Source of the DNA: Rozella allomycis CSF55
Lineage: Eukaryota
Reading direction: 5' to 3'
NCBI GenBank assembly: GCA_000442015.1
Contig: KE561347.1
Span: 1-64,000, forward strand
DNA: 64,000 bases
In this document: positions 9,917 through 49,400 of the stretch, one piece after another
How positions within the stretch are numbered: the stretch's first letter is position 1
How the letters are laid out: every line of letters begins with the position of its first letter
Notes under the pieces: model-generated
Databases searched by the model: none
What the model saw: the letters and a program-made list of their open reading frames with translations, nothing else
Told to the model about the DNA's origin: nothing
Made by a program: the position numbers and the translations under genes

Positions 9917-10106
9917 ATATGTATTTAAAATCTTGATATCATTCTATCCCAACTTTTCAATGTCTTATAACTTCTAGATTCAAAACTCCACGATTTAGAT
10001 TAGAACTTCTCAAAGATCTTCCTTTTATTTTTAATCTTCCATCCAATTTAATGAAATAGTGTAATATTTTTCAATTCATCCCTTCTCGAATAAATGACCC
10101 TTGCAA

Positions 10107-13100
10107 ATGTCCAAGCGAAAAATCCCTCAAACATTTTCCAAAAATCCGCGAAAATCAACATCCACAGTGCAAACGCGTCTAGATTCCGTGGCCTCCGCCC
10201 TTAGCTGCACTACATTTGAGATTGAAAACATTACTGTGAAATTTCCATACGAGCCATACGATGTGCAGCGCGACATGATGAAGCTGGTAACAATAACTAA
10301 AACATGTGAATAGATGATCCAAGCGTTTAAATCTGGCCAGAATGCGTTATTGGAGTCGCCAACAGGCACTGGCAAATCGCTGTCGATATTGTGTGCGTCG
10401 CTGGCATGGCATGAGAGTCTGAGGGGTTTGAAGGGTGAGGAGAAGCGGGTGAAGCTTCCAAAGATATATGTTGGGTCTCGGACGCATAAGCAGTTGAAGC
10501 AGATGATTAGGGAGCTCAAGGAGAAGACGCCGTATCGGCCAAAGATGGCGATCCTTGGCAGCAGGGATTTCCTGTGTATTGAGCCTGATGTGATGAGTTC
10601 TGTGAACAAGTCTGAAGAGTGTTTGAGCCGGCTGCGGTTTGAGGACAGAGTTGTGAAGAATGCTGATGGGTAAGTGGATTGTTGTTGTTGGATGTAGGAG
10701 CGAGAGTCGGCAGGTTAGAAAGTGTGAGTATTATAGAACGTTCAAGGATGATGTTCCGCCTATTTGGGATATTGAGGATTTGGTGAAGATTGGGGAGAAG
10801 AAGAAAGGGTGTCCGTATTTTACTGCGCGGGAGATATTGGAGGAAGCGACGATAATATTTTGCCCGTATAATTATATTGTGGATCCGAGTATTTAAATTA
10901 ATTGTTGATAAAAGTGATTAGAAAGACGATGGATATTGAGTTGAAGGGGAATGTGTTGATTATTGATGAGGCTCATAATATTGAAGATGTTGCTAGAGAT
11001 GCAGCGTCGTTTATAGTTAAGCAGGAGAATTTGGTTGCGGCTATTTTGGCGCTTGAAAAAATAATTGTAAAGAATTCATCGTTGGGGTCGGCGTATGCGG
11101 ATGTGAAGAGTATTCTGGCATCGTTTAATAATTTTATGAAATCAGATTTTCAGTTTGAGAAGCAATCAATTGATAAGAAGAGTACAATGTAAGATTATGA
11201 GGGAAATGTTAGGATAGATGGAACGGGGGTACTATGAGAGAGAAATTAAGAGATTATGGGATAACGCCGTCTTTTATAGAGATTGGAAGGAAAGCGTTGC
11301 AAAAGATAATTTCTGAAATTTCTAAAAATGATTCTCAAGGGCGAAGATTTAAGTTTGACAAGGAGGAAGAGACGATTGAAGTTTATGAGAATGAAATAAA
11401 CAATATGACGATAACATTTATAGAATCATTGTTGATATCGTTTAGCAATTTGTTTAATGAAGAGTATAAGAATGATTTCAAGTTGATATTGAGTGAATGT
11501 ATGATTAGGAATAAGCAAGGACAAAAGACTATTGGAATGAATAATAAATTGAGTGATTTTCACGTTGAAAGAGAGTTTCAATTTCTGTGTTTGAATGCCA
11601 GGGTTATATTTAATGAAATTTCAGAATGCAAAAGTATAATTTTAGCGTCAGGAACATTGTCGCCAATGAATACATTTGCTGGTGAATTGGGAGTAGAGTT
11701 CCCGTTGAGATTGGAGGGGAAGCATGTGATAGAAAAGAATAGAGTATGGGTTGGGNTGCCAATGAATACGTTTGCTGGTGAATTGGGAGTAGAGTTCCCT
11801 TTGAGATTAGAGGGGAAGCATGTGATAGAAAAGAATAGAGTGTGGGTTGGAGTTAATCCGTTTGGCAAGAATGGAGGGTTGTTGCATGGAACGTTTAAGA
11901 ATACCGAAACGCTGGAATATCAAGATGAGATTGGAAAAATTATTTTAGAAATTGTAGAAAAGGTGCCATTTGGAGTTTTATGTTTTGTGACATCGTATAG
12001 TTTTCTGGATAAGGTTTTGGAGAGATGGAAGAATACTGGAATTTTAGAAGAAATAAAAAAGAGAAAATATATTTTCAAGGAACCCAAATCTGTGGATAAG
12101 ATTGGATTTGAGAAATTGTTGAATCAATATGAAAAGAAATTAGATTGTGGCTTGACTAGAGATCTAAAAAAAGATTCAAAGAAAGATTTGAAGAATGGGT
12201 GTTTATTTTTTGCAGTTTTTAGAGGCAAAGTTAGTGAAGGGATGGATTTTAGAGACAACAATTGTAGAGCTGTAATATCAATTGGAATTCCATATCCATC
12301 AGTGACAGATATGCAAGTATCATTGAAAAAGGATTATAATAATAAATATTCAAAGATGAGAAATTTGTTGAATGGAAGGGAGTGGTATGAAATTCAAGCG
12401 TTTAGAGCGATTAATCAAGCGTTGGGAAGGTGTATTAGACATAAAAATGATTGGGGAGCCATTTTGATTCTTGATGATCGATTTAGAAATAAATCAATGA
12501 GAGATAAATTGTCTAAATGGGTTAATCAAAATTCTATTGTTTATTCTTCCTTCAATGACACATTGTCTTCTCTTAATACTTTTATTCAATCAAACAGAAC
12601 ACAAAAGGCTTTGGAATTGGAGGTTTTTAAATCAGAGGGTTGTAAAGTGGAGTATAAATCAGAGGCGTGTAAAATAGAGTGTAGTGATGATAAGAGTGAA
12701 GTCAAGACAAGTAATGATAAAGGGCTTGCTGTTGAGAGTACAAGTGAGGTTATGGGCGCTACTGTTAATGATGATAAAGACAATGTCCATAAGGATGAAA
12801 ATATTTCAGTTGTTGATAGTGATGATGATTTCGTTCCAAAAAGAAAAAAGATTAATTTTCAAGATTACTCTTTCAATTCAAATTTAAATTCAAATACAAA
12901 TATAAATTCAAATATAAATTCAACTTCAAACTCAGATACAAATGAAACACCAAAAAGTAATAAAACTTTGAAATCTTTACCTCTGATGACACCAACAACA
13001 AAAGCCCTCCAACAAACAGTTTCATCACCATCAACTAGCCCTCAAATAAGATCAGTGATAACGTGTCTCCAATGCAACAAACTATTATTTCAATTCCCAT

Positions 13101-13552
13101 TCAAACCCTTCAACAAAGACACTTCCTACTCTCACCTAACATGGGAATCAATTCAATTCTCTTTTCTTTCTAAAATTCAAAACAAAATCCAAACGAGAAT
13201 CGATAATTCATTCCTCTCTTCAAACTCTCTTTCAAATAATCTAAAAGATCAAAATGTTTTGCTTGTTTGCAATCACTCATCCTCAAATCAAATCCACGTT
13301 GTTCCTGCTGTCCCTTCAAGCTCAATAGCTTTGGAAATTTCTGAAAATATTCTGGATTGTTTATTTGATTCTGAATCTCAAGTTTGTTTCTCTTTAGTGT
13401 CTTGTAAATGGTGTCAACAAGCACCCCTGTTCTGTCATCCCATGGATGCTATCGTTGGTGTAAAAATGACAAGCAAATCTTTCAGTTTTAATGATTTTGT
13501 ATTTCTATTTCCAAACGCTATCAAAAGTACTGATTTCTTTAAAGGTTTATAA
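10107..13552 (+). CDS. XPD-family Fe-S DNA helicase, FANCJ/BRIP1 (or RTEL1)-like
   Basis: [10 protein letters not shown]-motif, [17 protein letters not shown], Fe-S cysteines (LCI..EEC..KCEYY..GCPYF), [39 protein letters not shown]. Confidence 0.92.
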
Positions 13553-13632: not shown

Positions 13633-15129
13633 TTATTTGAAATGGGGAAATAATGCTTCTATTTCATCAACCTCTTTGGGAACCTCTTCAGTCAAATTAG
13701 TGCAAAAGTTGGGTCCAACCAAAATATCATCTTCTATTCTTATCCCAATCCCCCGATACCTACTTAAAACCATTTTTCAATCACTTACTTTTCAGGAAAC
13801 CTCGTATCATTCTTTCGCACATAAAGTCCAGGCTCAACTGTAACAACCATTCCAGCCTTCAACGGCATTTCCTTGCTCGCAGTCACACAATCATGCACAT
13901 CCAGCCCCAAATAATGCCCAATATCATGTGGATACACATCTGGAATTTCCTTATCAACATCAAATCACTCAATTACATGATGTAGGATTTTAATGTCCAG
14001 TTTCATCAACGCTTCCCGCAAATAGTCTCTGGAATAATCGTACAACTGATTAATAGAAAGTCCACTCGTTTCCTTGCACTTTTCTATAATCTTCTTTTGC
14101 ACGTACAGGACGGCATTATACAACTCCATCTGGGCCCGTGAATAGGTTCCGTTCACAGGCCATGTGCGCGTAATGTCTCCACAGTAATGTTCATAGTCGC
14201 TGCCTGCGTCTACCAAGACTAGATCGCCATCTCTAAACAATTCATGCCGTTACATTGTACCTGAGTTGTTGAGCATTGGATACGTAGTGAATTGTATTGG
14301 CATTTTCGCCTCCTGCACAGACAGGAACATATGCAAGTCCATTAGCACCTCTTATTTTTGCTTCGTATTCTAATTTGGCTTCTAATGCTCTTTCAAACAT
14401 CCCTGGCTGCGTAAATTTTATAGCCTATTTCAATCAACTATTCTCTCTACTTGTTTCATTGCTTTTGCAGAAATTGAGCATGCTTTGGTCATCAAATCTA
14501 TTTCAAATTCGCTTTTAACAACTCTCTGCATATCAAGCAAGTCATGGGCCGATTTCATTTCAACCCCTATCATACCAACTATTTTATGCATTACCTTTCA
14601 CGGACGGCAATTGCATTGAATCGGGTTTATATACTTTATCATATTTCTGTATATTATTCATCAGATACGCTCCCAGAGACCCAATCGGATGCGCCTGGTC
14701 CGCCATAAAACTGCGAACCGCTCCATCAGTCCCACACATCGGGCCTTCCCACAGCACCTTGTGTGCATCATACGGCTCCACAAACAAGATCATCTGGTAC
14801 CCCTTCCTAACACTATCGTCTCTCTTCAGAATCATCGCCGCATTGGGTTCATTGAAGCCCGTCAGATAGTAGAAATCAGACTGCTGGCGGAACGGGTAGC
14901 TAGTAAATGCACAGATTTATTGTTACAAAATGTGCGGGCTCTTGTAGAACATTTTGTGGCCCGAAAGAAGGATTATGGAATTTTGGTCGAGATGTCGCGT
15001 TAGTCGGTACCGGCGCGAGGATAATTCTTCCGGTGGGATTGGAATGCTGAGAGTTGCGAGGGGTTGTTTGGAAGCGGTTTGGGAGAAGTGGCGAATTGGA
15101 ATTGAGAATGGAAACTTTTTGCTGATCAT
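13633..15129 (-). CDS. ICP55: Mitochondrial Xaa-Pro aminopeptidase (ICP55/XPNPEP3), multi-exon
   Basis: Presequence-like N-term, FRQQSDFYYLTGFNEP, LWEGP, LVLVDAG..YCGDITRTWPVNG, YPHDIGHYLGLDVHD, TVEPG, GIRIEDDI. Confidence 0.9.
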
Positions 15130-15367
15130 TCGAAAACGGAAATGGTATTTCTAAATTTCGCAGTTTGAATGTTTGATGAAACGATTCACTCAGGATTCAG
15201 AATGTATTGATTTTGAGGAATATTATTAGTGTTGTGTAATATTTGCGCGTAAATATCTTCAAAAATTATCTGCCTATAATTAACTCGATCTAAAAATGCA
15301 CACCTCCTGTTTTACTTGTGCTATAAAAACAACCCCTAGGGAATGAAACATCAGACTAGTCAAAACA

Positions 15368-16429
15368 ATGGGATCCTTTCTTTGGCTTTTCGTTCTGCTG
15401 TCCTTTACTTCAATGCTTCAATCACGCCCATCTCCGGATAAGACAACCGATGTCATGGTAGACGATAAGCTCCGTTGGACTTTGAACTATTTTCTTCACT
15501 TGGATGATGATAAGAAGAAAAGTTTTACAGAATCCTTTGACCAAGTTAATTCAGCATTGACTGACTCTGCCAAAAAGGTGTACGATTCAATATTCAAGAA
15601 ACACGGGAAANTGTTAATTCAGCATTGACTCAAAAAGGTGTACGATTCCATATTTAAGAAAAACGGGAAATTCAGTTTCGACTCTGTTGCTAGTAAAGCG
15701 GATATCGGTATAATCTTTTTTGACGATGCACACGGCAAGGATATTCCTGTGCGGTTTACAGATCAAGCTCTCTGTTTTGTAGGAGGAAAGTATTTTGGCT
15801 GGGATGCATTCTATTGTAAAATTAAAGCAATCGATGACATCAAGAAAGATCCCGCTGGATTTATGGGTGTAGCGGTTCATGAACTAGCTCATCTTTTTCA
15901 AGCATTAAATTCTGGAAGTGGAGACTTTAGGGAAGCGATTGCTGACTGGCATCGAATCGACTGTGGCTTCCCTTCGGAGAAAATCGAGTACACCATAAAA
16001 GACGCACTTTCCAAGAAATGTGTTGACCTGTCTTATCAAACAGGTGCCTTCTTCTGGGATTTTGTAATTAAGAGTTTAAATAGGAATATTCTTGTTGAAT
16101 ATGGAGATCGTGATAGGAGCGGAATGGGTTCCTTTGAGTCGATAATGAAATCTCTGACAGGACTCGATAATTTTGACAAACTTTGTGACGACTATCGCAA
16201 TCATTTGCTAAAAGAAGTTGGTATAACTGACGGGACAAATAATATTTACCCCGAAAAATATAGTGAATGTAAGGCGAAAGGGACAGCGCCTAGCTGTACG
16301 TTTTGGCCTGGAAATACTGCAGATTGCGATGAAGGATGGGAAACGCCAGGTGATGTGAAGTGGGACAAAGACGCGATGAGTAAAGGGTGCGTTGTCGGTT
16401 ATCGTCGATATTGTTGTAAGCGTAAATAA
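15368..16429 (+). CDS. Secreted BSP-family (basic secretory protein-like) zinc metallopeptidase with Cys-rich C-terminal module, paralog 1
   Basis: Signal peptide, VHELAHLFQ (HExxH), EAIADW, SYQTGAFFWDF; ORF split only by the n-join duplication at 15611. Confidence 0.75.
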
Positions 16430-16658
16430 ACGTAGTTTAATATATCAATCTGTCTTCTGAATATTATGTCATATTTTAAAACAAACCAAGTCACGTAAAT
16501 CACTTAAGCAGTACCGAAGGCGTTGTCGAAGAGTATTTTCTCGCCAGTAGTTACAACACCAAAAATAACATGACTGTAAATAGAAAACTCCTGTTTCATT
16601 GATTCCATATATCCAACCCCTAGTTGATGAAACGAGAGACTTGTGACTTGTCTTTACA

Positions 16659-17773
16659 ATGGAATACTTTTCTTGGCTTTTAGTTCTTCTGTCGTTTGCT
16701 TCCATGCTTCAGTCACGTCCATCTCCGGAAAAGACAACTGATGTCATGGTAGACGATCAACTCCGCTGGACCTTGAACTATTTTCTTCTCCTGGACGACG
16801 ACAAGAAGAAAAGTTTCACAGAATCCTTTGACCAAATCAACTCGGCACTGGCTGACTCTGCCAAAAAGGTGTACGATTCAATATTCAAGAAACACGGGAA
16901 ATTTAGTTTCGAGCCGGTTGCTAGTAACTAGTAAGGGAGACATCAGTGTAATCTTTTTTGACGAGGGGCACACCAAGGATCTTCCATTGCAGGTTCCAGA
17001 TAAATCAATTTGTTTTGCAGCAAAATATCTTGACTGGGATGCATTCTATTGCAAATTTGACGCCATCAACAATTTTAAAAAAGATTCCGCTGGATTTATT
17101 GGACTAGTGATACATGAACTGGCTCATCTCTTCCAGGCGATAAACTCTGCAAGTAGAGATTTTAAGGAAGCAATCGCTGATTGGCATCGAATCGACTGTG
17201 GTTATCCTTCAGATAAAATTGAAGATTCCATAAAAGATGCCCTTTCCAAGAACTGCGTCGATCTGTCCTATCAAACAGGCGCCTTCTTTTGGGATTTTGT
17301 CATTAAAAGCTTAAACAGGAACATTCTTGTTGAATATGGTGATCTCGATAGGAAAAAATTCGGTTCATTTGAGTCTATAATGAAAGCGCTGACGGGGCTC
17401 GACAATTTTGACAAACTTTGTGACGACTACCGACGCCATTTGAGAACGGATANGCGATAGGAACAAAATGGGTTCTTTTGAGTCTATAATGAAAGCGCTG
17501 ACGGGGCTCGACAGTTTTGACAAACTTTGTGACGACTACCGACGCCATTTGCGAATGGATATTGGGATAAAAGACGCAACCATCAATTTCTTCCCTGAAA
17601 AGTATAGTGAATGTGTAGCAAAGGAGTCGGGGTCTACCTGTGCCAGTTTGCCTGGAAATACTGCAGATTGCGATGAGGGATGGGAAACGCCGGCTGATGT
17701 GAAGTGGGATAAAGATGCGATGAGTAAAGGGTGTATTGTTGGATATCGCCGATATTGTTGTAAACGTAAATAA
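16659..17773 (+). pseudogene. BSP-family metallopeptidase paralog 2, frameshifted as assembled
   Basis: Colinear with paralog 1 but carries a 7-bp tandem duplication (CTAGTAA x2, 16921-16934) giving a stop at 16929-16931; n-join at 17453. Confidence 0.6.
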
Positions 17774-17966
17774 ACCTAATTTTTTTTTATATAATATGAA
17801 TTGTTATGATCCATTCATTCGCCAAATCCATGTGCGTTCATCTGTTGAATCGTCTCAAATTTACCAAGCGTTTGTTTATTTCCCCATTAATTTTATCCAT
17901 TTTTATTACGATAATTATCCTTCTTCTCGTTATTGTATAGAGTATATCTAGTTCATAGCACCAAAC

Positions 17967-20900
17967 ATGTGGCTAAGTTCCAAGAATTTGCCTATGGTTA
18001 GTAGTAAAACAAGCGGAACATTTTCACGGGCATTCCATCTACTGTGTACACTTCCGCCTACGCGTGCAAAGATGGTAGAGCAGCAGTACTGTGAGGAGCG
18101 GTACGTAGAGGAGATGCAAGAGCTTTGTGGAATAATGGAAGGTAGTGGCGAATTGCTGTCGTATTTTGAGAGTGAGAAATATACGAGTTTGGAGAGTGTT
18201 GATGGCGAGATTGTTGAGCGGCTTGTTGGAGAGTTGGGGATGGGGCGGGGGCAGGCTGTGCGAGTGTTAGTTGATTGCTGTAGGGAGCGGGGTGAGGTTG
18301 ACAATGGAAGATTTGGGTTTGATGAAGCTGTGATGTATTATCATGGGGAGCGGGTGGCGATGTTGGAGTGTTTGAGTGCGTTGATAGGGGTGTGTGAGAA
18401 TGAGGAGAATGAGTTGAGTGTTGTTGGGGATGAGGTGTTGGTTAGAATTGAGGGAGGGTTTGTTGAGCGGTGGATGAGGGATTTTGGGAAGCTGGTGAGG
18501 TGTAAGCCAAAGGGGGTGAATGTTGGGAGTGTTGGGATGATTTTGGAGAATAATTTGCGGGAGATGAAGAGTATGCTTGTGTGTTTGTTTTGTATGGTGT
18601 ATCGGAGGGTGGTGTTGAGTGGGAGGGAGATTGGAGAGATTGTTGGGATGTTGATTGAGAATGAGTTTTTTTCGAGGGTGGAGTATTATGGGATGTTGAG
18701 TGAGGAGGGGAGGAGGGAGAGTGAGGAAGTGAAGCAGTGGGCGATACTGTTGTTTGTTGAGATGATGAATTTTGAGAATTTGAATGAGGATGGGATGAAG
18801 GAGTTGAAGAGAATGAAAGTGTGTTTGGTTTCGGATATAAAGGTTGTTGCAGAGATTAATGAGCGGTTGAAGGGGATGAATTATAATTTTGAAGGGAGTA
18901 GTTTGATATTGTTTNAATGGGATGAAGGAGATGAAGAGAATGAAAGTGTGTTTAGTTTCGGATATTAAGGTTGTTGAGGAGATTAATGAGAGGTTGAAGG
19001 GGATGAATTATAATTTTGAAGGGAGTAGTTTGATATTGTTTAGTTGGGGTTGTTTTTTGGCCAAGATAGATTTGATGAATGATGAAGAGTATGAAGAATT
19101 GGTGAGTGAGAAGCAAGTGAATAGTAAGAATGAGATTTATAAGATGATGATTGTGAAGGCAGTTGAGATGAAATGTATGAATTTTATTAGAGAAGTGATA
19201 AAGAAGAAGATAAATTTGGGTGTTAAACAAATAATAAAAGATTTGTTGGATGTTTTTGTTGAATGTTTTGAAGTTAATTTTATTGAAGGGTTTGAAGATT
19301 TGGTTGAATGTTATTCAGATTTGTTTAAGCAAGAAGAAGAAATGATTGAAATGTTTTGGAGAGATGAAAATTTTAGTAGAGGAATGAAGAAAGTTTTAGA
19401 GTCTTGCATTGTAAGATTTCCAATTCAATATGAACCCTTGTTTAAATTTATGAAAGGGATTGGAAATGAAAATTTTTATGAATTTTTTAATAATTTGGAA
19501 TATTTTAGTTGTTTTTGTGATAAAAATAGATTTGAAATTTATGAAAATAATTTTGTTGTTTGTTTGGAAAGTTTTAATTGTTTTGGAATAGAAATTGTTA
19601 GAGGAACCAATGGAATTTTGATTGGAAATGAAATTATTAAATGGAAAATAAATTATTCTGGTTGGGAAATTATTTTTAATCTTTTAGAAAATTTTTTATT
19701 GAAAAAAGATGAAAAAAATTTCTTATTGTGTGGCTTGGAGATCTTTGAAAAAATAGATTTTAAGAAGAATGAAATTGAAAAAATAGATTTATGGATTGAA
19801 TATTTAATAGAATTATTAGAAATTAATGAATTAGATTTAATTTCAACATCTTTGAATTGTTTAAAGAAATTAATTTTTAAAATGAATTTTCAATTGATAA
19901 AAAGATTGATAAATTTTAGTTTGAATTTTTTTAATATTTTAGAATCTGAAATCAAAATTGGAGAATTTAAATTTTCTAAAATTTATTTTGAATTTATTTT
20001 AAATTTAATAAAAGAAATTAATTCAAGAAAATTCATTAAACAAACTAATTCAGTTGAAATTGAGTTATGTGAATTATTTCCATTGATTTTAAATTTGAAT
20101 ATTAATAAATGGAAGTTTAGCAATTTGAGTGAAAAATGGATTATTTTAAAGTTATTTTCAAATATTGTTTATGAATATTCAAGATTAACAAATAAAGAGT
20201 TTAAAATTGAATCATTGTATAAAATTATTCTGCAAGGAAATGAATTGATGAATTATTTATTTAATAAACGTAAAATTAATGAATTAAATGAATTCAAATC
20301 TTGTTTAAAACAAGTATTAAAATGTTGTACGTTTCAATTTGTGGTTGAAGGGGTTGAAAGGAAAGAAAGTGAAGTAAATGTGGGAATAGTTGAAAGGGTT
20401 AATAGTAATCAATTTAACTATTCAGCTGATTTGATTCCCTTGTTGATTGATTATTCATTTGATAATGATCTTGGCTTGGACGCTTTAAATTTACTAGAAA
20501 AATTGATAAAAGAAAATATTTCTTTAACTCCATTTATAGATTCATTCTACAATCTAATAGTAAATTTACAAAATAGATCTTTTATTTATAAACTTTTATC
20601 ATCTTTAATTGAATACCAAAAAGAATTTTCTTGTTTATTATTAAAAAGAAATTTAAACATTATTTCAGATCTAAAAAATTCTACTAAAAACATTAAATTA
20701 GAATTTCACATTCTAAATTTCATTAAATTAATCTATTTAAATGATCTTTCTTTTCTTATTCAATCTTTTAAATCTAATGATCTTTTAAGTTATTTGAAAA
20801 ACAGATTAAAAGATTTAAATAATACAATTAGTTTAACAATTTCAACTGATTCAAATAGAATTTCAAATGATTCAAATAGTTTATCATCTTTGGCTTATTG

Positions 20901-22434
20901 GTTGGATAATAAAGCTACAATTTTATACATTTTTAGCTTAGAAAGAATTATTGTAGATTGCGTTGATTACTTGAAAGAATCAATTTCAGAAATCAATCTT
21001 TCAATTTTAGATGAATTTAAAAATTTCAATCTAAATTTAATTAAAAATAATTCTTTAAATTATGGAAATTCTTTTCTTTATGATCCTTTTGTTTTCACAG
21101 ATTATTCTGATAAATTAATTCAATTAAACAATTCTTTATCTTTAATAAACGCAAAATCAAATCTATTCAAATCTTCTTGTATTCTTCTTTGCTTGTCTAA
21201 TCTATCAAACTATGAATCTATTCTAACCACTCTAATTCAAATAGACTTAAACAATTCCCCTGTGAAAGATTACTCTTCTATTCTTTTATCTTTAATCTGT
21301 TTAAAGAATAGAAATCTTCCATCCAATCTTATCAATTCTATTCTTGAATTATTACAAAAATCATTTCAGAATTTTACTAATTATTCAGATCTATTTTTAT
21401 CTGTGGCTGGGTTAGACAATATCACAGAAAAACAAATCGTTGAAATTCTTTTAATGATAATAAATCATCCAAAAACAATTGAATCTCTAAATATAATCAA
21501 AATCTGTTGTTTAAAGAGCTTCAATAATTCTATTGAAATTTCATTAATCTTTCAACACAATCATTTTATTCCAAATTTGTTAAGTTTATTAAAATCAAAT
21601 TCATCTAAAAAATTATCTTCAAACATTCTAGAATTTTTATCTGATATTTCTCAAATAGATTCACTAGCTTTACTTTTATTGCCTCATCTTCATTCATTAA
21701 ATACTTTCAGTCTTGATTCAGTCATTTCTATTTACATCAATGTACTTTTGCTAGTAGGCAAAGAAGCTGTTCCAAGTGCTCTTCAATTATTCAATCGCTA
21801 TTCTGATGATTTCAACACAATCTTTGAAAACTTTTCTTCCAATCTAATCCTCTTAGAACAATCAATTCTTTTAATCAATCTTTTATCAAACTATTATTCA
21901 GACTGGAAAATAGAATTCAGCCACATTTCAAACACATTTGTTCTAAAATCAATCATCATTCTAAAACACCTGATTTTACTCTACACAAACTACAATGAAT
22001 TCAAACACGAATACTCTACAAATCTAACAGAACCAACAACCAAAAACATCCTCGAGTCAATCTTCACAAACGGCATCCAATCACTCTTGGTGTTTCTAGA
22101 AGCTCCACTAACAATCTCCAATCCAATCGAAGACTGGCCGCTCCATTTGCAGCTCATCTCGCCCAGTCTCAAATCATCGTCAGATGTTCTATCATTCGGG
22201 TCGCTGGTGTCGCTCTTCAATTCAACAAACAATGTGCTGCTGAAACACGAGATACTGTTCATGCTGTATTCACAATGCGTGCTTTGCTTGCTGCTACAGA
22301 ATAACCAGAATATAGATTTGCTCGAATTCAGGAATGAAGTCGTGCCGGAATTGGCCGCTTGCTTTGGGAAGGATGTTGGGGATCCTTTTGTTGCGCAGTT
22401 GAGTTTGCTGTTTGGTAAAGTTGTTGGGAATTAA
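17967..22434 (+). CDS. NUP188: Nucleoporin Nup188-like
   Basis: YYHGERVAMLECL, ILLFVEMMNF, RFPIQYEPLFKFM and GTNG..IKWKINYSGW resemble Nup188 N-terminal motifs; about 1450 aa once the n-join duplication at 18915 is collapsed. Confidence 0.7.
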
Positions 22435-22619: not shown

Positions 22620-23198
22620 ATGAAACAATATTTCACTCTACTAGTTACTCTATACGCATCGATCATCCTCTGCATTAATCCTCAGCCAAGACCGCAACCA
22701 CAGGGTATAGCTAACCGACTCAAAACCTCTTGGAAGGCTGCCAAAACAACATACCAAACACGCAAGTTGATGCGGAACGATGTCGCCCAATCCGCTCGTC
22801 AAAAACCAGCCCAGTCCTTGACCAAAACGCCAGCACAATCCACGGCCTCCAATATACTGGCTCAGAAATACTTGGAAAAGATAAACAGCATAAATCTAGC
22901 AGGTGATCTCAAAACGCTGAAACGCACGGACGAGGCCTTGGGCATTATGGCGAAAAATGCGCAACGAAATGGTATGACGCAGAGAGATGTTGAGCCAGTG
23001 TTGAGAAAACTTTCCGAATTGAATATGAGGGCTGATATTAAGCAACGGGAAACATGGAATGTGTTTGACAAGTATCGCAGAAGCGCTGGGGCTGATATGA
23101 AGGTTACTAACAATTTGATGGAAAAATTTAGGGGCGATGCAAAGACATTTAAGATGACGGAAGATTGGATAAAGATGTTCAAGGCGCTTCCTGCATAA
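22620..23198 (+). CDS. Secreted cationic helical protein, candidate effector, paralog A
   Basis: Signal peptide, then NPQPRPQPQG, then K/R-rich helix; intronless; homologous to 24250-24822. Confidence 0.75.
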   Translation: MKQYFTLLVTLYASIILCINPQPRPQPQGIANRLKTSWKAAKTTYQTRKLMRNDVAQSARQKPAQSLTKTPAQSTASNILAQKYLEKINSINLAGDLKTLKRTDEALGIMAKNAQRNGMTQRDVEPVLRKLSELNMRADIKQRETWNVFDKYRRSAGADMKVTNNLMEKFRGDAKTFKMTEDWIKMFKALPA

Positions 23199-23340
23199 AC
23201 ATGTTAATAATTAATAACGAGTTAATTATAATTTAAACTGTTAATAACCGTTAATAACGAGTTAATTATATTNGAATGGATTTGTTTCTGTGGCCTTACA
23301 ATGAAAAACTAAAATTGCTAAGCCATGGACAGACAAACAG

Positions 23341-23372
<32 letters not shown>

Positions 23373-23582
23373 CCACAGAAACCATTCGATAACTACCCCG
23401 GTCAACGATATAAATCCCTTAAAGTGAGTGTGTTATCGAAGTGAAAATGGTATTAACACGATTTTCAATAATCGTGTCTGGAGTCCGGGTCGTACCTCCC
23501 CGTCCGATAATCGTGAATAACGAGTCAATTATAATCTAAACATGTTAATAATTAATAACAAGTTAATTATAATCTTAACATG
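23197..23582. repeat. AT-rich ~38-bp repeat units flanking a CA/GACA microsatellite and an inverted-repeat-rich segment
   Basis: AAACATGTTAATAATTAATAAC(G/A)AGTTAATTATAAT-like units at ~23197-23272 and ~23516-23582; microsatellite at ~23328-23378. Confidence 0.7.
23466..23510 (+). repeat. Dispersed repeat copy (reverse-complement partner at 62058-62103)
   Basis: CAATAATCGTGTCTGGAGTCCGGGTCGTACCTCCCCGTCCGATAA vs revcomp CAATAATCGTTTCTGAAGTCCGGGTCGTAAACTCCCCGTCCGATAA. Confidence 0.8.
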
Positions 23583-24249
23583 GTTTAAGTGACAACAATA
23601 AAATCGAATAAATACTGCTTGTCATTTTGATAGCAAATAGATACATGCATATTTTATAATATTCTTCTACGGAATCCACGATACTTGAAGTGAAGTGATT
23701 ATAGTAAAAGGACTTAGTCGCTCCGTGCGCTTAATCCTCATAAATTGGATAGTAAGTTAAACGATAAATGAGAAAACGGATATCGATTGAGAATGGATTA
23801 TTTATTGAATATCTCCTTGGAGTTTTATATGGTTGATTCTTTCTGTACATAGTAGATCTATCATTATCAAGAGATCCATATTGAGTCCTCATCCAATGAG
23901 TATAAATCTATGTTAGTTGTCAATAGAGAAACCTTAATCGTTGTATAAAGGTTGTGAACTCTATGCTATCGTCAATGACCCTGACAGGGCATACTGGTAG
24001 TACCTTAAGATAGAGTCAGGGATTGAGTACCTATGCTATCGTCATAGACCCTCTTTGGGTCAGTTATGACAGACTTAATGGAAAAGTGCAAAGATAATAC
24101 TAACTAAAGAAGGAATTTAAGGAATCTATGGTTAAATACTCCCAATTTTAATTGTATCATAAATTAATCCTATTGGATGCTATGTATAGAATCTCCTATC
24201 GTGTAACATCTGTGACTCATATAAATATTTTTGGCATACAGGGGTCAAT

Positions 24250-24822
24250 ATGAAACTATATTTCACTATTCTATGTACTCTTTACGCATCGATCATTCTT
24301 TGCATAAATCCTTCTCCAGCGCCTAGACCACAACCACAGGGTATGGCTAACCGATTCAGAACTGCTTGGAAGGCAGTTAAAGGAAAGTTCCAGACGCCAA
24401 GGCTGGTTCGAAACAATGCTTTCCAATTCAACCGCCAAAAGCCATCTAAAAACATGGCTTATCAAAAACCCATAGTCGATAATCGTAAGATGCAGGTTCA
24501 GCACTTGGAGAAGAGCGTGAATGAAATAAACCTAGCAGATAAACCCGAAATTCAGAATTTCAAGATCGTTGAAATGGTAAATTATGCCCGATCCAATGGT
24601 ATGTCGCAAAAAGATCTGCAACCTGTGATGAAAAAACTATCTGAAATAAATAAGGCGGCTAATATTAAGAAAACGGAAGCATGGGAAAACTTCAATCGCA
24701 ATCTTGCAAACGTGGACAACAAAGTTCCAGGCAAGTTGATGGATGAATATACTCGCGAAGCACAAACTTTTCAGAGGACTCTAAACTGGATTAAATTGTT
24801 CAAGACGCTCCCAGAAAAATAA
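24250..24822 (+). CDS. Secreted cationic helical protein, candidate effector, paralog B
   Basis: Near-identical signal peptide to paralog A, NPSPAPRPQPQG leader, shared INLA, NGM(T/S)Q and WIK(M/L)FK motifs. Confidence 0.75.
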   Translation: MKLYFTILCTLYASIILCINPSPAPRPQPQGMANRFRTAWKAVKGKFQTPRLVRNNAFQFNRQKPSKNMAYQKPIVDNRKMQVQHLEKSVNEINLADKPEIQNFKIVEMVNYARSNGMSQKDLQPVMKKLSEINKAANIKKTEAWENFNRNLANVDNKVPGKLMDEYTREAQTFQRTLNWIKLFKTLPEK

Positions 24823-35700: not shown

Positions 35701-36851
35701 TCTGACGAGAATTATTCCAGCAAGGCCTGACGGGTGCTACGATGATATTGTGACGATAAAGTCGTTTCAGAAAGAGTACAAGATTATGGGTGGGATCAAT
35801 ATGCCCAAGCAGATTAAATGTATTGGCTCGGATGGAAAGGTTTATGTGCAGTTGGTCAAAGGTAATCTTTTTTTACTNACTGCTTTGTAGGCAATGATGA
35901 TCTCAGGCAGGATGCTGTGATGGAACAGGTGTTCAGGCTAGTCAATATTCTCTTGAAAAGGAATGCTAATTTATCCATCAGAACTTACAAGATTATTCCA
36001 CTGACAGTGCAATGCGGCGTTATCGAGTTCCTTCAGAATGCTAAATGTGTATGGCGGACTATGGCAGAGATGCACAGCCAGTTTTATCCCAACGACTATT
36101 CACTCTCCAAATGCCGTGAAATAATGTCAAATGTAGACGAAAGCAGCCGATTAGCAACCTTTGAAGATGTACTAATGAACCACCATCCAGCGTTCCACCA
36201 CTACTTTAGTAAATTCAATTCATGTTTCGAGTGGTTCAAGTACCGCAAGAATTATACGTGTTCAGTTGCTGTCAATTCTATGGTCGGCATGATTGTTGGG
36301 CTGGGCGACAGACACTGCCAGAACAAGCTGCTGGACAAGGCCACGTTTGAGATTATCGAGATTGACTTGAACCTGATCTTTGAGCAGGGCAAGCTGCTGG
36401 CGGTGCCGGAGGTGGTGCCATTCAGACTGACGCGCAACATGATCACGCCAATGGGCTCGTCGGGCGTTAATGGGCTGTTCAAGCGCAACTGCGAGGCGAC
36501 GCTGGCGTGTCTGCGGGAGCAAAAGGATACAATCATAACGATCCTCAAGGTGTTCAAGCACGATCCGCTGTACCGGTGGACGATCACGTAATTGCTTTTT
36601 GGGTTTGGGATAGGCCGTCGACGATAAAGAAGCTGAAGAGCAGGAACATTGAAACGGATTCCATTTCGGAGAGCGTGTTTGACCAGAATCACGAGGCGAA
36701 CCAGGTCATTCACAGAGTCGCGGAAAAGCTGATGGGTGTGGAGCAGGGGTCTTTGTTGAGTGTGGAGGGGCATGTTAATTATTTGATACAGATTGCGACG
36801 GATAAGGATAGGTTGAGCAGGATGTACCATGGGTGGCAGGCTTGGTTGTAA
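29781..36851 (+). CDS. ATM: PIKK kinase ATM/Tel1
   Basis: N-terminal TAN motif LCSSKLKER, GGINMPK, QLVKG..DDLRQDAVMEQVF, GLGDRH, PEVVPFRLTR, FATC LSVEGHVNYLIQIATD..MYHGWQAWL*; n-joins at 30123, 35427, 35878. Confidence 0.92.
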
Positions 36852-45255: not shown

Positions 45256-45275
45256 TATTATGGCCTGTCGCAAAT

Positions 45276-46056: not shown

Positions 46057-46415
46057 GGTCTTTGATCGTTCTTGAGATCCGATTTATTATCAATAACTGA
46101 GATATCATTGATTCAATGCAAGGAGCATAATTTTGAACTGTATCTATGATGATCATTAGATTCTAAATACTCACATATAATAGGTGAAAAATGAGTTATT
46201 ATTGTTTAGCCCCAGAGTCTTGGGTCGAGTCCAGACCATTCCATATCAATTTCTGACAGGCAACCATTAAACATATAGAATCACATCACTTTCTTTTGCA
46301 AATAATCCGTTTAAGTTATATCTAGTTAGTAGTTCTTAACTTATAGTACCGGTTTTAGTTTTTGAAGGTGGTCATTTAGGATCATCGAGACTTGAAATTT
46401 ACCAAATTGTCACAA

Positions 46416-49400
46416 ATGGAAATGGAGTTTCCAGTGCACGGACTGATGCCCAAGCAAGTACAAAAAATCCAACGATAAAATAGGAAACGGAAGCATCAAA
46501 CTTTGTCAAAAAGCACGCTACGTGGGACGGCCGAGGTATTATTGTTGCGATTTTAGATACGGGTGTTGATCCTGGAGCAGCTGGCTTGCAAGTAAAAATG
46601 AAATATATTAATAAGTAGAAAACAAGTGATGGGAAGCGCAAGTTGCTTGATGTGATTGATTGTTGTGGGAGCGGAGATGTTGTTTTGAGTGAGCCATTGA
46701 AGGTGGACGGAGAGATGAAGGTTGAGGGGTTGGCTGGATATAGATTGAGGTTGAATAGACAGTGGAATATCAAGGATGGACTGGTGAGGGTAGGACTAAA
46801 GAGAGCGTTTGAATTGTATCCAAAGTCGTTGATTAAGAGATTGGTTGAAGATAGGAAAAAGAAAACTGAAGTTGATCATGTTAGTTACTGTGGAAAAGTG
46901 CTGGAGGAGATTAGTGAAATGAAGAGAAAGAACTCTGATTTATCTAAAATGAATCAAGAGGAAATAATAAGATACAATGATCTGAATACAAGATTGGATA
47001 TATTGAAAGAGTTGAATAAAGAGGAAGATGTTGGCCCCTTGATTGATGTTGTTGTCTTTAATGATGGAAGTAGATGGAGGGCTGCAGTTGACATTAGCGG
47101 CACTGGAGATTTTACCAATTCCAAAGCGTATGCTGATTATTCTCTGGAACATGAATATGGGACATTTTCAAAGGATGATTGTTTGAATTATTCCATCAAG
47201 TTTTATGATAATGGAAATGTGCTTTCAATCGTCACTAATGCGGGATCTCATGGTACCCATGTAGCAGGGATAGTTGGCGCGTATTTTGAAGATAACTTGG
47301 AGTTGAATGGAGTTGCTCCTGGATGTCAAATGATTAGCTTGAAAATTGGGGAAACCAGATTGGGGTCAATGGAAACTGGAACTGGATTTTGTAACAAATA
47401 ATCATTTAATTAACTTAGCACGAGCGATTAAAGCCATTGCAGATTATGAATGTGATCTAGTGAACATTAGTTACGGAGAAGCACCGAATGTGCCAAACAA
47501 AGGTCACATTGTAGAATTGTTAAAGGAATTAAGTTTAAAGAAGAATGTTGTTATTGTAAGCTCAGCTGGAAATGGAGGTCCTGCCTTGTCAACAGTTGGC
47601 GCGCCTGGTGGTACAAGTGACACAATAATTGGAGTTGGTGCATATGTGACGCCAGCTATGATGAAGGCAGAATACGCTCTAGTTGACAAAATAAATGAAA
47701 CGTCTTATACTTGGTCATCAAGAGGACCAACTGCTGATGGAGATGTGGGAGTGAGTGTTTATGCACCTGGTGCTGCAATTACAAGTGTCCCTACATGGAC
47801 ACTACAACCAAACCAATTAATGAATGGAACTAGCATGTCTTCACCAAACGCTTGTGGTTGTCTTTCTTTAATAATATCAGGTTTAAAACATGAAAAAATC
47901 AATTACACGCCAATGAGCATAAAGAGAGCTATTGAAAATACAAGCAAAGCCATTAATGATGAATTCAAAGTAGGATTAATTCAAGTTGAAAAATCATTTG
48001 AATATCTAGTTAAAACTCGTTCTTTTGTTGATTCTGATGTTGATTTTCAAATTGAAATTTCGGAAACAAAAGGCCGGGGTGTTTATATAAGGAATTGTAG
48101 AGAAGCCAATAAAGTTAATCAATATACAGTGAATGTGAATCCAGTGTTTAGAAATGACGAAGATAATAATAAAAAATATCAATTGGATGTTAAAATGGCG
48201 ATTACAAGTAGTGAACCATGGGTTACAGTGCCTGAATATTTACAGATTAATAATGGAGGAAGAAATTTTAATATAATTGTTGATGCGAGAAATATTAAAG
48301 AAGGATTAAACTTTTGCCAAGTTGAAGGATTTGACGTTTCATCACCTTGGAGGGGTCCTCTATTTAAAGTCCTTATAACTGTTTGTAAACCAATACAGCC
48401 AAAAGAATCAAATCAATTTTCATGTTTATTTAATAATCTAAAGTTAAAGAGTGGTGATATTCAACGTTATTTTATTGAATGTCCTTTAAATTGTTCATAC
48501 GCAGGTAATAACGTTTGTTCTATTAGAAAGATATTGACTTGAAAGCTGAGAATGTTGAAAAAACAACGAAATTTGTTATTCATACATTGCAAATACTTCC
48601 AGAGACTAGATACTCGAATAGTGAGGATCAATTTTATGTTAATATTGGACCAAATGAAGTTTTTAAAAAAAGAATAATTGTTCAACCAGGTGTGGTCATG
48701 GAAGCGACTGTGGCGCCATTTTGGTCTAGCGGGCTAACTTCTGAAATTTCTTTCAATGTTTCATTTGGCGGGCTCTCTCCAAATTCTAAATTTATTTTAT
48801 CTCAAGCAAATAATTTTGCTAAATTTGAAATGTCAAGTTTAAATAAATCAATAGCATCACCATCTGGTTCATTTGATTGCTATAACAAGACGTTAAAGCC
48901 AAGTGAATATTCAATAAATGTGTTGAGTGAAAGAGATAATCTCATTACAGGAAAGGCAATGAATGAATTAGTTTTAACGTATAAATTCAAAGTAGCTAAT
49001 AGTTGTTCGATTACACCTTCAGTACCATTGTTTAATGATTATTTGTATGATTCTCCATTTAATAGCGTTGTTTCTATATTATTTGATAAAAATAAAAAAT
49101 ATTTAACGTTTGGTGACATTTATCCCAAAAAGACAAAAGTAGACCCTGGTCAGTACATATTTAAGCTTCAATTGAGGCACGAATCGTTTGAATTTCTTGA
49201 ATCATTTTCTAATTTAGTTTTAAATGTTTCTTTTACTTTATCCAAAGAAGTTCCAATTGAATGCTACAAATCTCTGCCTGATTTGATTAACAAGACAAAG
49301 TTTGGTTCAGCAACTGTAAAGCCAGAGTATCCAATATCTTTATTCATTGGCACGCTAGTTGAAGATTTAAACGATGAAGTTCAACCAGGAGACTTTCTTT

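Follow-up and report, generated by a model that had tools for sequence, protein, structure and literature searches.

What makes the long genes of a parasite's nuclear DNA start nearly free of C, pass through a very AT-rich middle and end poor in G? We addressed this question in the window, meaning the whole 64,000-nucleotide stretch of Rozella allomycis CSF55 contig KE561347.1 that was analysed, where a sequence-only reading had described a saw-tooth of G/C strand skew. The saw-tooth proved real, with 33 of 255 500-bp windows exceeding the largest |GC skew| (0.379) obtained in 200 shuffles of the window. On the + strand, GC skew peaked at 0.89 (18751-19250), with further highs of +0.79 (30001-30500), +0.58 (11751-12250), +0.54 (46501-47000) and +0.48 (34251-34750) and minima of -0.43 (21501-22000) and -0.40 (12751-13250; 500-bp windows throughout). 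The longest runs without C spanned 169 nt (19438-19606) and 166 nt (30796-30961), and the two strongest lobes held 45-46 GGG per kb versus 1-19 elsewhere. Per tooth, GC fell from ~0.50 at the edge to 0.16-0.20 at the centre and then rose again, and the lobe at the gene's 5' side was far stronger than the 3' lobe. As a control, |skew| never exceeded 0.31 at 16 loci for distant helicase relatives in other eukaryotes. Our literature search found no published description of such a pattern, which resembles directional mutation bound to individual genes and not to replication origins.

The flips, taken as cumulative-skew minima or as the point where C begins to be lost, lie at ~10259, 14839-14880, 18060, 22135-22306, 29877-29960, 34239, 36221 and 46560, within ~0.1-0.2 kb of where they had been read by eye. 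Several of these points had been called GC/CpG-rich; GC is indeed high (0.45-0.54), but CpG observed/expected is ~0.9-1.0, with no enrichment beyond composition. The change described as C/A-rich to G/T-rich amounts mostly to a gain on one strand (of G right of the flip, or of C left of it) over an AT-rich baseline. The genes and segments concerned are:

10107-13552, + strand: XPD/FANCJ-type helicase gene, ATG to stop (Pfam Helicase_C_2, 2.8e-52)
10260-12750, + strand: helicase 5' lobe, G-rich and C-poor, GC skew +0.38 to +0.58
12750-13250, + strand: helicase 3' lobe, C-rich and G-poor, GC skew -0.40
13650-14860, - strand: aminopeptidase P (ICP55-like) gene body (Pfam AMP_N 1.3e-26, Peptidase_M24 4.5e-18)
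14860-15250, - strand: first ~270 bp of ICP55 and promoter side, sense C-rich, G-rich on the + strand
~17968-22434, + strand: Nup188/Nup192-like gene, ATG to stop (family lead Nup188/Nup192, scores 0.92-0.94)
18065-19400, + strand: Nup188-like 5' lobe, nearly no C, G up to 46%, skew up to +0.89
19400-20500, + strand: Nup188-like tooth centre, AT-rich, GC 0.16-0.23, GC3 0.09-0.20
20500-22135, + strand: Nup188-like 3' lobe, G-poor, C increasing rightward, skew -0.16 to -0.43
22135-22434, + strand: final ~300 bp of the Nup188-like ORF, G-rich again, R3 0.69, Y3 0.42
29781-36591, + strand: ATM/Tel1 gene, ATG to stop (PI3_PI4_kinase domain, 1.5e-45, at the 3' end)
29965-34240, + strand: ATM N-terminal tooth, with a G-rich lobe, an AT-rich centre and a weak C-rich lobe
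34242-34269, + strand: ATM intron of 28 nt, coinciding with an internal flip (cumulative-skew minimum 34239)
34270-35300, + strand: second, weaker ATM tooth, skew +0.48 (34251-34750) down to -0.06
46417, + strand: ATG of the tripeptidyl-peptidase II gene (Pfam Peptidase_S8, TPPII_Ig-like-1, TPPII)
46560-48300, + strand: tripeptidyl-peptidase II 5' G-rich lobe, skew +0.54

The Nup188-like ORF holds the skew peak; where it aligns with the Rozella allomycis CSF55 protein O9G_002787 (NCBI), the blocks are identical. Two successive bins of its 5' lobe had C at 0/75 third positions and G at 44-46/75, giving 150 consecutive third positions without C and a skew3 of 0.9-1.0. Toward the 3' end the composition is reversed (third positions at 21841: A32 C25 G3 T15; Y3 0.64 and R3 0.11 over 21835-22134). 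The end of the ORF is G-rich again (G32 and C9 in the 100-bp bin from 22350), and this flip therefore lies inside coding sequence. In the ATM N-terminal tooth, skew reached +0.79 and GC fell from 0.54 to 0.20. We take the ATM start to be real because what we presume to be a TAN-like motif, within the first 23 residues, lies upstream of the flip. In the helicase, three of three tiny introns in the 5' lobe (10670-10697, 10889-10914, 11189-11212) contain no C, and the 3' lobe lies in a low-complexity S/T/N/P-rich tail, with C at 22-24/75 and G at 3-6/75 second codon positions. The ICP55 body is sense G-rich, hence C-rich on the + strand (+ strand skew -0.14 to -0.31); its flip at ~14.86 kb falls 250-290 bp past the ATG (15129), and the pre-flip segment has Y3 0.71 and R3 0.34. 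At +300..900, third-position R3 and Y3 were 0.95 and 0.04 in ATM, 0.86 and 0.17 in the helicase, 0.69 and 0.25 in ICP55 (sense), and 0.52 and 0.20 in tripeptidyl-peptidase II.

The flips had been held to be independent of gene orientation, given that minus-strand ICP55 shows the same + strand polarity. This independence is a symmetry artefact: a G-rich-to-C-rich tooth is unchanged by reverse complement, and the polarity in ICP55 is therefore uninformative on gene independence. Relative to genes, the layout is fixed. The sense strand is C-rich over the first 0.1-0.3 kb; a gain of sense G follows, taken from A and T and falling e-fold per ~0.43 kb, then an AT-rich centre and a weaker mirror lobe near the 3' end, with the initial flip falling 95-290 bp past the ATG, within the coding sequence. 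The sign of the skew depends on the coding strand and on how far a site lies from the start: at ATG+300..+900, sense GC skew was positive in 21 of 24 genes (15/16 plus-strand, 6/8 minus-strand) and sense R-Y in 18 of 24 (binomial p = 0.023). Among minus-strand genes, third-position sense R3-Y3 was +0.44 in ICP55, +0.31 in AAA, +0.25 in IDH and +0.19 in Ank. Meta-profiles gave a sense skew of -0.14 in short genes (n = 19) and -0.18 in minus-strand genes (n = 8) over the first 100 bp, and +0.12 to +0.21 in both groups over +300..500; the weak positive skew of short genes is expected in part from codon structure alone. Long genes (n = 5) showed +0.5 to +0.68 over +200 to +1200. GC3 was U-shaped along long genes, and short genes were uniformly GC-richer. 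At many gene boundaries in the window, no tooth was seen.

All five long, strongly skewed genes of the window lie on the + strand, and orientation dependence for this strong class is read from the weaker minus-strand genes.

Rather than vanishing at synonymous sites, the skew is strongest there. Its strength at third positions, together with the C-free introns, means that the bias arises from mutation or from biased fixation, and not from selection on the protein. At 4-fold sites of the Nup188 and ATM tooth centres (19591-20790, 32081-33280), base shares were A.42, C.06, G.05 and T.47. From centre to 5' lobe, G rose from.05 to.50, at the expense of A (.42 to.17) and T (.47 to.28); purines together went up from.47 to.68 (p = 1e-5), and C/(C+T) was the same (p = 1.0). 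The T share fell in six codon families with at least 5 centre sites each (GGN, GTN, GCN, ACN, CTN, TCN); CCN, with 6 sites, went the opposite way, and CGN had one centre site. Replacement of A by G was greatest after T, both on the sense strand of 5' lobes (0.83 vs 0.50-0.54) and on the antisense strand of 3' lobes (0.54 vs 0.17-0.27), and the same preference appeared, more weakly, in background genes.

Which process could act in this way? Recombination offers the best-surviving alternative to a transcription-linked one. Hotspots of recombination or breakage near gene ends, acting through strand-asymmetric biased gene conversion or error-prone repair synthesis, would leave heteroduplex or refilled resection tracts in which one strand per hotspot side is preferentially corrected or resynthesised toward G, and therefore the strand running 5' to 3' away from the hotspot would gain G. 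G:C pairs are indeed added without extra C>T, with a decay of 0.3-0.45 kb like that of a conversion tract, but G is gained from T besides A, which is not a simple two-strand AT-to-GC bias. The flips are local GC maxima, although the sources sit in coding sequence and not in promoters. Two-sided flips within coding sequence at 34.24 and 22.14 kb also fit hotspots, yet the two strongest sources are one-sided, BSP2 and IDH being without a mirror lobe. The GC3 profiles of long and short genes agree with conversion, and source strength differs widely among genes, as does hotspot strength; strand-specific biased conversion itself was not found in our literature search. We consider this explanation possible but rather unlikely.

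The sequence-only reading had offered dense, stable replication origins or a localised strand-specific mutagenic process, and our results support the second and do not favour the first. Fixed, efficient bidirectional origins every 2-5 kb at the flips, with leading-strand G/T enrichment declining toward random termination sites, would match the polarity (C-rich left, G-rich right), the GC-rich flips, the descent of skew through zero between them and the roughly two-sided flips at 34.24 and 22.14 kb. We compared a symmetric linear fork-polarity model with two unequal exponential sources fitted to third positions, under assumed equilibrium and hand-made gene models. The symmetric model was worse by AIC 134-208 (1253 vs 1119, 1511 vs 1303, 1104 vs 945). 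Fitted 5' source strengths for the three teeth were 12.3, 17.2 and 4.5, and 3' strengths, in the same order, 1.8, 0.4 and 2.3; by these fits each tooth's 5' lobe exceeds its 3' lobe in strength by a factor of 2 to 43. Decay lengths were 439 bp (Nup188), 433 bp (ATM) and 849 bp (helicase). The two strongest sources, at 18.06 and 29.96 kb, are directed into the gene, and mirror C-richness is absent from their left neighbours BSP2 and IDH. Pre-flip coding segments (R3 0.34-0.47, Y3 0.54-0.71) are not the mirror of post-flip ones (R3 0.78-0.85, Y3 0.11-0.16). Moreover, minus-strand genes take their skew sign from the coding strand, many gene boundaries lack a tooth, and the spacing would be far denser than that of budding yeast origins, which is roughly 20-40 kb. 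Origins are thus a very improbable source of the teeth.

Selection on the nucleic acid itself, through avoidance of G-C pairing in each gene half or through regulatory G-rich 5' regions, seems extremely unlikely. A stretch without C, or without G, is unable to form internal G-C pairs, the effect is limited to genes, and G-runs are concentrated in the lobes. However, the smooth exponential decay, the common dinucleotide context on opposite strands, the affected introns and the drastically reshaped amino-acid content look like pressure and not design, and searches suggest no function.

The flips had also to be weighed against assembly joins, which do not coincide with them: 27 single Ns, marking unmerged contig overlaps, are scattered over the entire window. 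Two such artefacts, both unstranded, lie in the Nup188-like and ATM teeth:

18865-18991: duplicated overlap left unmerged around the N at 18915, away from flips; X1, X5 and X6 contigs omit 127 bases, and the copies differ at 6/125 positions
30099-30251: duplicated overlap left unmerged around the N at 30123, ~140 bp to the right of the flip in ATM; X1, X4 and X5 contigs omit 152 bases, and the copies differ at 10/150 positions

Contigs of four public runs, which are said to stem from separate studies and which include a divergent strain and perhaps the window's own source, reproduce the sequence, each kb-scale piece showing 0-3 differences, and span the flips. Single contigs, X1 (17522-18478, zero differences) and X6, bridge the 18.06-kb flip, and X1, X4 and X5 contigs cross the 29.96-kb flip, omitting only the duplicated overlap at 30099-30252. 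An artefact of chemically converted reads, chimeric joins or amplification errors is therefore barely credible despite the 27 joins, since contigs of these four runs carry the lobes and random base conversion would put stop codons into very long ORFs, yet ORFs of 1175 and 1419 codons remain open.

Our best reading, which we give an even chance of being right, is that mutation linked to transcription drives the non-template strand toward G. Several points count against it, besides the shared + orientation of the five strongly skewed genes. High transcription is not expected of ATM, a FANCJ-type helicase or a scaffold nucleoporin, and a simple rule of more transcription, more mutation predicts the reverse of what we found, the metabolic gene IDH being weakly affected and these three the most. 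The flips fall within coding sequence and not at the transcription start. Finally, the 3' lobes and the two-sided ATM flip at 34.24 kb need putative antisense or internal transcription.

The analysis shows how the teeth are laid out, that they are strand-specific, that silent sites and introns are affected, that G is gained from A and T, and that the strong sources are one-sided. We nevertheless infer that transcription is the driver, and propose that each tooth corresponds to a single transcription unit among the nuclear genes of Rozella allomycis. Over a strongly AT-biased local baseline (equilibrium GC3 about 10-20%), a strand-specific process adds G to the sense (non-template) strand, setting in 0.1-0.3 kb past the start codon, where it is strongest, and declining e-fold per ~0.43 kb. 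Its conversions are mostly A to G, above all at TpA, but also T to G, with no added loss of C. A weaker copy, active on the antisense strand and setting out ~0.3 kb upstream of the stop codon, would produce the C-rich 3' lobe and would need antisense transcription from gene 3' ends. Long genes would expose an untouched AT-rich centre, and in short genes the lobes would overlap and largely cancel. The non-template strand, single-stranded in transcription bubbles or R-loops, may suffer base loss or damage; if the lesion is bypassed or patched by placing C opposite, the lost base would become G on that strand. Because hybrids with G-rich RNA are more stable, the process could feed on itself, which would account for a few genes running away to skews near 1. 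The step in which C is placed opposite the lesion resembles the action of Rev1/Pol zeta at abasic sites in yeast. One account (PMC6063437) describes both this insertion of C opposite abasic sites and transcription-dependent T>G mutation in yeast, which originates in lesions of the non-transcribed strand and which loss of RNase H raises further.

GC skew in 500-bp windows followed the saw-tooth course that the sequence-only reading had described by eye, and its size is remarkable: three very strong teeth (each a G-rich 5' lobe, an AT-rich centre and a C-rich 3' lobe) and several weaker ones were present, and 33 of 255 windows exceeded the maximum |skew| of 0.379 obtained in 200 shuffles. The strongest tooth (18.06-22.14 kb) began with a sudden rise to +0.62 to +0.89, crossed zero near 20.5 kb and reached a minimum of -0.43, while its GC content went from 0.50 to 0.16 and back to 0.41. 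Teeth of like shape occupied 29.96-34.24 kb (peak +0.79) and 10.26-13.25 kb (peak +0.58), and C-free runs of 169 nt and 166 nt were present. The same profile contained the following weaker teeth:

34.27-35.3 kb, weaker tooth
36.2-37.0 kb, weaker tooth
46.56-48.3 kb, weaker tooth

A long plus-strand gene at 3300-7100, for which no Pfam match was found, carried a mild tooth: at a GC content of 0.28-0.31, skew was +0.18 to +0.20 over 3.5-4.75 kb and about -0.1 over 5.0-6.75 kb.

Twenty-seven single Ns are scattered through the whole window, nearly all of them between abutting duplicate copies of 58-590 bp that are 90-98% identical. Examples of these pairs are:

18790-18914 and 18917-19041, duplicate copies at an N join
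24503-25086 and 25108-25677, duplicate copies at an N join
35265-35426 and 35429-35590, duplicate copies at an N join

These duplications resemble haplotype or contig ends that were left unmerged. Exactly these segments were missing from the contigs of four public runs, which otherwise agreed with the teeth to within 0-3 differences per kb-scale piece (197 differences in all); the runs are listed under different studies, one possibly having supplied the window itself and one being visibly a different strain. The flip at 18.06 kb, where C-rich sequence jumps to G-rich on the plus strand, was spanned by one contig from each of two runs (X1 and X6), and that at 29.96 kb was crossed by contigs from three (X1, X4 and X5). 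Two long reading frames (1175 and 1419 codons) stay open across DNA of 16-25% GC; random base conversion would break them. An artefactual origin of the skew was rejected on the strength of the bridging contigs, the spread of the joins over the whole window and the intact reading frames. Copies at the joins differ at about 2-13% of positions, differences that are few and unpolarised, and the duplications introduce false frameshifts and repeated peptide segments into gene models. Separately, contig word depth at 23200-24100 was 30-100-fold that of the flanking sequence in each of the four runs, and many loose ends occurred there; this segment, flanked by 43-nt direct repeats (23196-23278 and 23499-23579) and without an Rfam match, probably represents a mobile or repeated element present in high copy number.

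Besides a nucleoporin-like gene on the plus strand (ATG about 17968), the principal genes were identified as follows:

XPD/FANCJ-type helicase, plus strand, ATG 10107 (Pfam Helicase_C_2, 2.8e-52)
ATM/Tel1-type kinase, plus strand, ATG 29781 (Pfam PI3_PI4_kinase, 1.5e-45)
tripeptidyl-peptidase II (TPP2), plus strand, ATG 46417 (Pfam)
aminopeptidase P, called ICP55 in the sequence-only reading, minus strand, ATG 15129 (Pfam AMP_N and Peptidase_M24)
isocitrate/isopropylmalate dehydrogenase (IDH), minus strand, 28.1-29.6 kb

Introns are tiny (24-28 nt) and of the form GTA...AG. The ATM start codon is secure, as the first 23 residues contain an LxxxKxxERxxALxxL pattern, which we take to be the TAN motif of Tel1/ATM. 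Assignment of the nucleoporin-like reading frame to the Nup188/Nup192 scaffold nucleoporins (language-model atlas scores 0.92-0.94) is a lead only. Its segment 18991-22431 is identical, block by block, to NCBI O9G_002787 of Rozella allomycis CSF55. For this gene (17700-22434), the public model has 871 residues although the frame stays open for more than 1,450 codons: it begins in the upstream gene, takes in a duplicated join, excises in-frame sequence as introns and terminates within the AT-rich centre, with the open frame continuing about 600 codons further. The inclusion of the join and the stop in AT-rich sequence indicate that the gene is mis-modelled, and the change in composition seems to disrupt gene prediction at this locus. 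No close relatives of its product were found in metagenome contigs, and the sole protein match was its own O9G_002787 record. Elsewhere in the window we found tandem duplications at 15347-17773 (a pair of BSP-type peptidase genes) and 22620-24822 (a pair of small genes with predicted products that have a hydrophobic N-terminus resembling a signal peptide and share 72-78% identity in their repeated parts), and no tRNA genes or Rfam families.

Using 24 hand-built gene models over the 64 kb (16 plus-strand and 8 minus-strand), we found that the sign of the skew follows the coding strand, as in transcription-associated asymmetry. Sense GC skew between 300 and 900 bp after the ATG was positive in 21 of the 24 genes, including six of the eight on the minus strand, and the minus-strand meta-profiles agreed. 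At third codon positions of minus-strand genes, the excess of sense R3, G/(A+G), over Y3, C/(C+T), was +0.44 in ICP55, +0.31 in the AAA gene, +0.25 in IDH and +0.19 in the Ank gene. The flips had been held to be independent of gene orientation; their like polarity on the plus strand stands but is uninformative, because a pattern that is G-rich at the 5' end and C-rich at the 3' end of the sense strand looks the same on the plus strand either way and yields a C-to-G jump at every gene boundary.

Meta-profiles of short, minus-strand and long genes ran in like order. The initial 100-200 bp were C-rich on the sense strand (-0.14, -0.18 and -0.11, respectively), after which the sign switched and skew peaked at +300 to +500 bp. 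Short genes had a weak peak (+0.12 to +0.21), the five genes of at least 3 kb a very strong one (+0.5 to +0.68 from +200 to +1200), and lobe strength rose with gene length (Spearman 0.46, p = 0.023, n = 24); no minus-strand gene in the window belongs to the strong class. Flips lay 95-290 bp downstream of the start codon in five genes. The outermost segments were sense C-biased at the 5' end and sense G-biased over the last ~300 bp. The flip within ATM (cumulative minimum at 34239) falls at the intron 34242-34269, and this part of ATM showed no other intron. An intron is likewise found no more than about 60 bp from the 5' flip in the helicase, ICP55 and TPP2 genes, but introns are dense in those regions. 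A search for a motif at the jumps gave two ACGCGT sites in the window versus 2.46 expected, which is not above chance, and no clear enrichment of ACGCG or GCGCG in the window. As a post hoc lead, both ACGCGT sites in the 64 kb (10173-10178 and 18060-18065) lie within about 90 bp of strong flips, and ACGCG cores lie near three others (14996, 29826 and 36430). This placement, which resembles a cell-cycle promoter box, might mark shared regulation of the affected genes.

The skew is a bias of mutation or fixation and not of protein selection. It was largest at third positions, so that it extends to neutral sites as transcription-associated asymmetry does, and it strips C-requiring or G-requiring amino acids from the encoded proteins. 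In two successive 75-codon bins of the nucleoporin-like gene, third positions comprised 0 C, 44-46 G, 4-6 A and 23-27 T, and near its 3' edge they comprised 32 A, 25 C, 3 G and 15 T. All three introns within the helicase lobe were without C; four introns outside lobes had 3-4 C each.

We fitted an equilibrium model of third-position purine and pyrimidine states, with a symmetric background and one-strand sources at both edges of each tooth. The background was AT-rich (AT-to-GC over GC-to-AT rate 0.09-0.21). In units of the background GC-to-AT rate, the sense A>G source had a strength of 12.3 in the nucleoporin-like gene, 17.2 in ATM and 4.5 in the helicase, with decay lengths of 439, 433 and 849 bp, and the antisense source at the 3' edge was weaker (1.8, 0.4 and 2.3). 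Extra C>T on the same strand was unneeded, the best C>T to A>G ratio being 0-0.5. From tooth centre to 5' lobe, fourfold-degenerate sites went from.05 to.50 G, from.42 to.17 A and from.47 to.28 T; the purine share rose from.47 to.68 (p = 1e-5) and C/(C+T) stayed the same (p = 1.0). The T share was lower in the six codon families with at least 5 centre sites; CCN, with 6 sites, went the opposite way, and CGN had a single centre site. This spectrum indicates that the core event is a gain of G on one strand from A and, to a lesser extent, from T, and the absence of C from the lobes is simply the AT-rich baseline.

The shift from A to G was strongest after T, on the sense strand of 5' lobes (0.83 vs 0.50-0.54) and, across codon boundaries, on the antisense strand of 3' lobes (0.54 vs 0.17-0.27). 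The TpA odds ratio was about 4 in both kinds of lobe and about 2 in background genes. The lobes analysed were:

18069-19890, 29961-32053, 10314-12700 and 46619-47398, 5' lobes
20941-22134, 12788-13237 and 33431-34240, 3' lobes

Given this common context, a single process seems to operate at both ends of a gene but on opposite strands, and the TpA preference resembles the WA hotspot of DNA polymerase eta. GGG occurred 45-46 times per kb in the two strongest lobes vs 1-19 elsewhere, giving the G-rich non-template strand of R-loop-prone regions, and the window held no canonical four-run G-quadruplex motif.

Strand-asymmetric biased gene conversion is a serious rival. It would add GC, decay over the tract length and give GC-rich flips, and GC3 indeed rose from 0.09-0.2 in tooth centres to 0.5-0.65 at the edges, with a decay of 0.3-0.45 kb. 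However, it predicts two-sided sources and equal gain of G and C on one strand, whereas fourfold sites in 5' lobes reached.50 G at.04 C.

Fixed bidirectional replication origins at the flips, densely spaced as the sequence-only reading had suggested, are not favoured. A bidirectional source of the strength seen at 18.06 and 29.96 kb, be it an origin or a break hotspot, predicts strongly C-rich DNA for about 1 kb to the left. The right lobes at these flips had R3 of 0.85-0.95 and Y3 of 0.03-0.11, but their left neighbours were balanced or opposite: the peptidase gene BSP2, left of 18.06 kb, had R3 of 0.39-0.51 and Y3 of 0.40-0.44, IDH kept its own gene-relative pattern, and coding segments directly before flips had R3 of 0.34-0.47 and Y3 of 0.54-0.71. 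In the absence of mirror C-richness, the strong lobes point one way, into the gene and with transcription; the flips at 22.14 and 34.24 kb were roughly two-sided. Linear fork polarity between two equal origins fitted poorly (AIC 1253, 1511 and 1104 vs 1119, 1303 and 945 for two exponentials). Nor was the sign independent of orientation, since it tracked the coding strand in six of eight minus-strand genes (R3 minus Y3 up to +0.44), with a strong class that is all plus-strand.

Other sources were rejected. Single-strand deamination with C>T far above A>G was worse by 10-24 lnL at a ratio of 30, and would not leave C/(C+T) at fourfold sites unchanged (p = 1.0). Resection and deamination around a break at the tooth centre would have the right polarity, but intensity was lowest there. 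RIP would raise TpA/ApT (threshold about 0.89) and lower (CpA+TpG)/(ApC+GpT) (threshold about 1.03), and the indices of the AT-rich centres did not fit: they were 0.68-0.70 and 1.88-1.96, near or past the background (0.73-0.74 and 1.36-1.40). A search for a palindrome or inverted repeat as the source of the mirror composition gave only short AT-rich chance matches. In 16 loci encoding distant helicase relatives in other eukaryotes (30-71% identity), |skew| never exceeded 0.31, so the pattern is not a property of the gene family as such.

Two known processes have the right polarity: transcription, in which the non-template strand becomes G/T-rich, and replication, in which the leading strand does. 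Direction, one-sidedness and gene-relative phase favour transcription. The other proposal of the sequence-only reading, a localized strand-specific mutagenic process, is thereby supported and can be sharpened to one that is gene-directed, G-ward and confined to one strand, with a decay of about 0.4 kb. This verdict covers 64 kb, 24 hand-made gene models and equilibrium fits, with a strong class made up of plus-strand genes.

For a transcription-linked process, we hypothesized that in certain genes the non-template strand would be left exposed by R-loops in the first kilobase. Placement of C opposite lost or excised bases on this strand would turn any base into G, which is the one-strand outcome expected if C is inserted at lost bases. 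G-rich RNA may then stabilize the hybrids, a positive feedback by which a few genes would run away, and a mirror process driven by antisense transcription could act at 3' ends. Three points stand against this mechanism: the affected genes are not obvious high expressers, the flip sits within coding sequence, and the 3' lobes would require antisense transcription. That Rozella allomycis undergoes self-reinforcing gene-directed hypermutation, in which R-loop exposure and C insertion took silent sites to ~60% G and 0% C, recomposed essential proteins (ATM and a scaffold nucleoporin among them) and, through antisense transcription, produced the 3' mirror, is a tentative proposal that we judge rather unlikely to hold in full. 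In yeast, Rev1 and Pol zeta place C at abasic sites, and transcription-dependent T>G changes arise from lesions on the non-transcribed strand, are enhanced by R-loops and increase after removal of RNase H (PMC6063437). In mammals, A>G changes are likewise in excess on the non-transcribed strand, and an asymmetry that resembles hypermutation occurs close to transcription start sites (PMC2927911).

We found no published description of such a pattern in Rozella or any nuclear genome, and the Rozella genome paper or its supplements may mention it. Known strand asymmetries of eukaryotic nuclear genes amount to a few per cent and need thousands of genes for detection; in Rozella a single gene displays the asymmetry by eye, one base vanishes from silent sites and protein composition shifts along the length. 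One small published genome therefore allows a direct test of the shares of transcription-coupled damage or repair, recombination and replication in gene composition. If the hypermutation proposal is right, this would be the first nuclear genome with a transcription-linked mutational gradient at mitochondrial-scale skew, and the boundaries of sense and antisense transcription units would be readable from composition alone. In practice, gene finders break skewed genes, and phylogenies and homology searches with skewed proteins will be biased. Rozella parasitizes the water mould Allomyces from within its cells, and GC- or skew-based binning of single-cell or metagenome data could misplace skewed contigs of such parasites.

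Among known systems, replication skew domains (bacterial oriC-type switches and mammalian N-domains) share the upward jump from C-rich to G-rich and the fall through zero until the next jump, but the Rozella teeth span 2-5 kb rather than hundreds of kb, have unequal lobes, decay exponentially rather than linearly and depend on gene orientation. Single-strand deamination gradients of vertebrate mitochondrial DNA, in which C>T dominates and A>G comes second, are comparable in silent-site skew, in grading by position and in effect on protein composition; in contrast, Rozella needs no extra C>T (kappa at most 0.5). R-loop regions with GC skew at the 5' end occur at mammalian CpG-island genes and immunoglobulin switch regions. 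They share with the Rozella lobes a G-rich non-template strand containing G-runs, which starts soon after transcription start and continues for about 1-2 kb. G and C are both abundant in those regions, whereas the lobes are nearly C-free and protein-coding.

Mammalian transcription-associated asymmetry, reportedly treated previously by Green and by Polak and Arndt, produces skews of a few per cent. One study gives an excess of A>G over T>C, and of G+T, on the non-transcribed strand, with a local component 1-2 kb past the transcription start (PMC2927911). Rozella is similar in its G/T-rich sense strand, mainly sense A>G change, onset just inside the gene, decay over about 1 kb and presence at neutral sites. 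It differs in a silent-site skew of 0.9-1.0 that rewrites amino-acid content, and in its T>G contribution, 3' mirror lobe, AT-rich centre and restriction of strong skew to some, mostly long, genes. To our knowledge, no comparable compositional footprint has been reported for yeast genes. Yeast abasic-site mutagenesis predicts that lost or excised bases of the non-template strand become G, which fits a rise in G at the expense of both A and T without additional C>T, but that result is a reporter phenotype in repair-deficient strains and ours is a genomic composition pattern (PMC6063437). In unicellular fungi, another study describes a per-gene skew with opposite signs at the two ends that involves fourfold sites, amino-acid usage and flanks, as in Rozella (PMC3315797). 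Its sign, C-biased at the 5' end and G-biased at the 3' end, agrees with the outermost ~0.1-0.3 kb of Rozella genes, whereas their interior lobes have the opposite sign.
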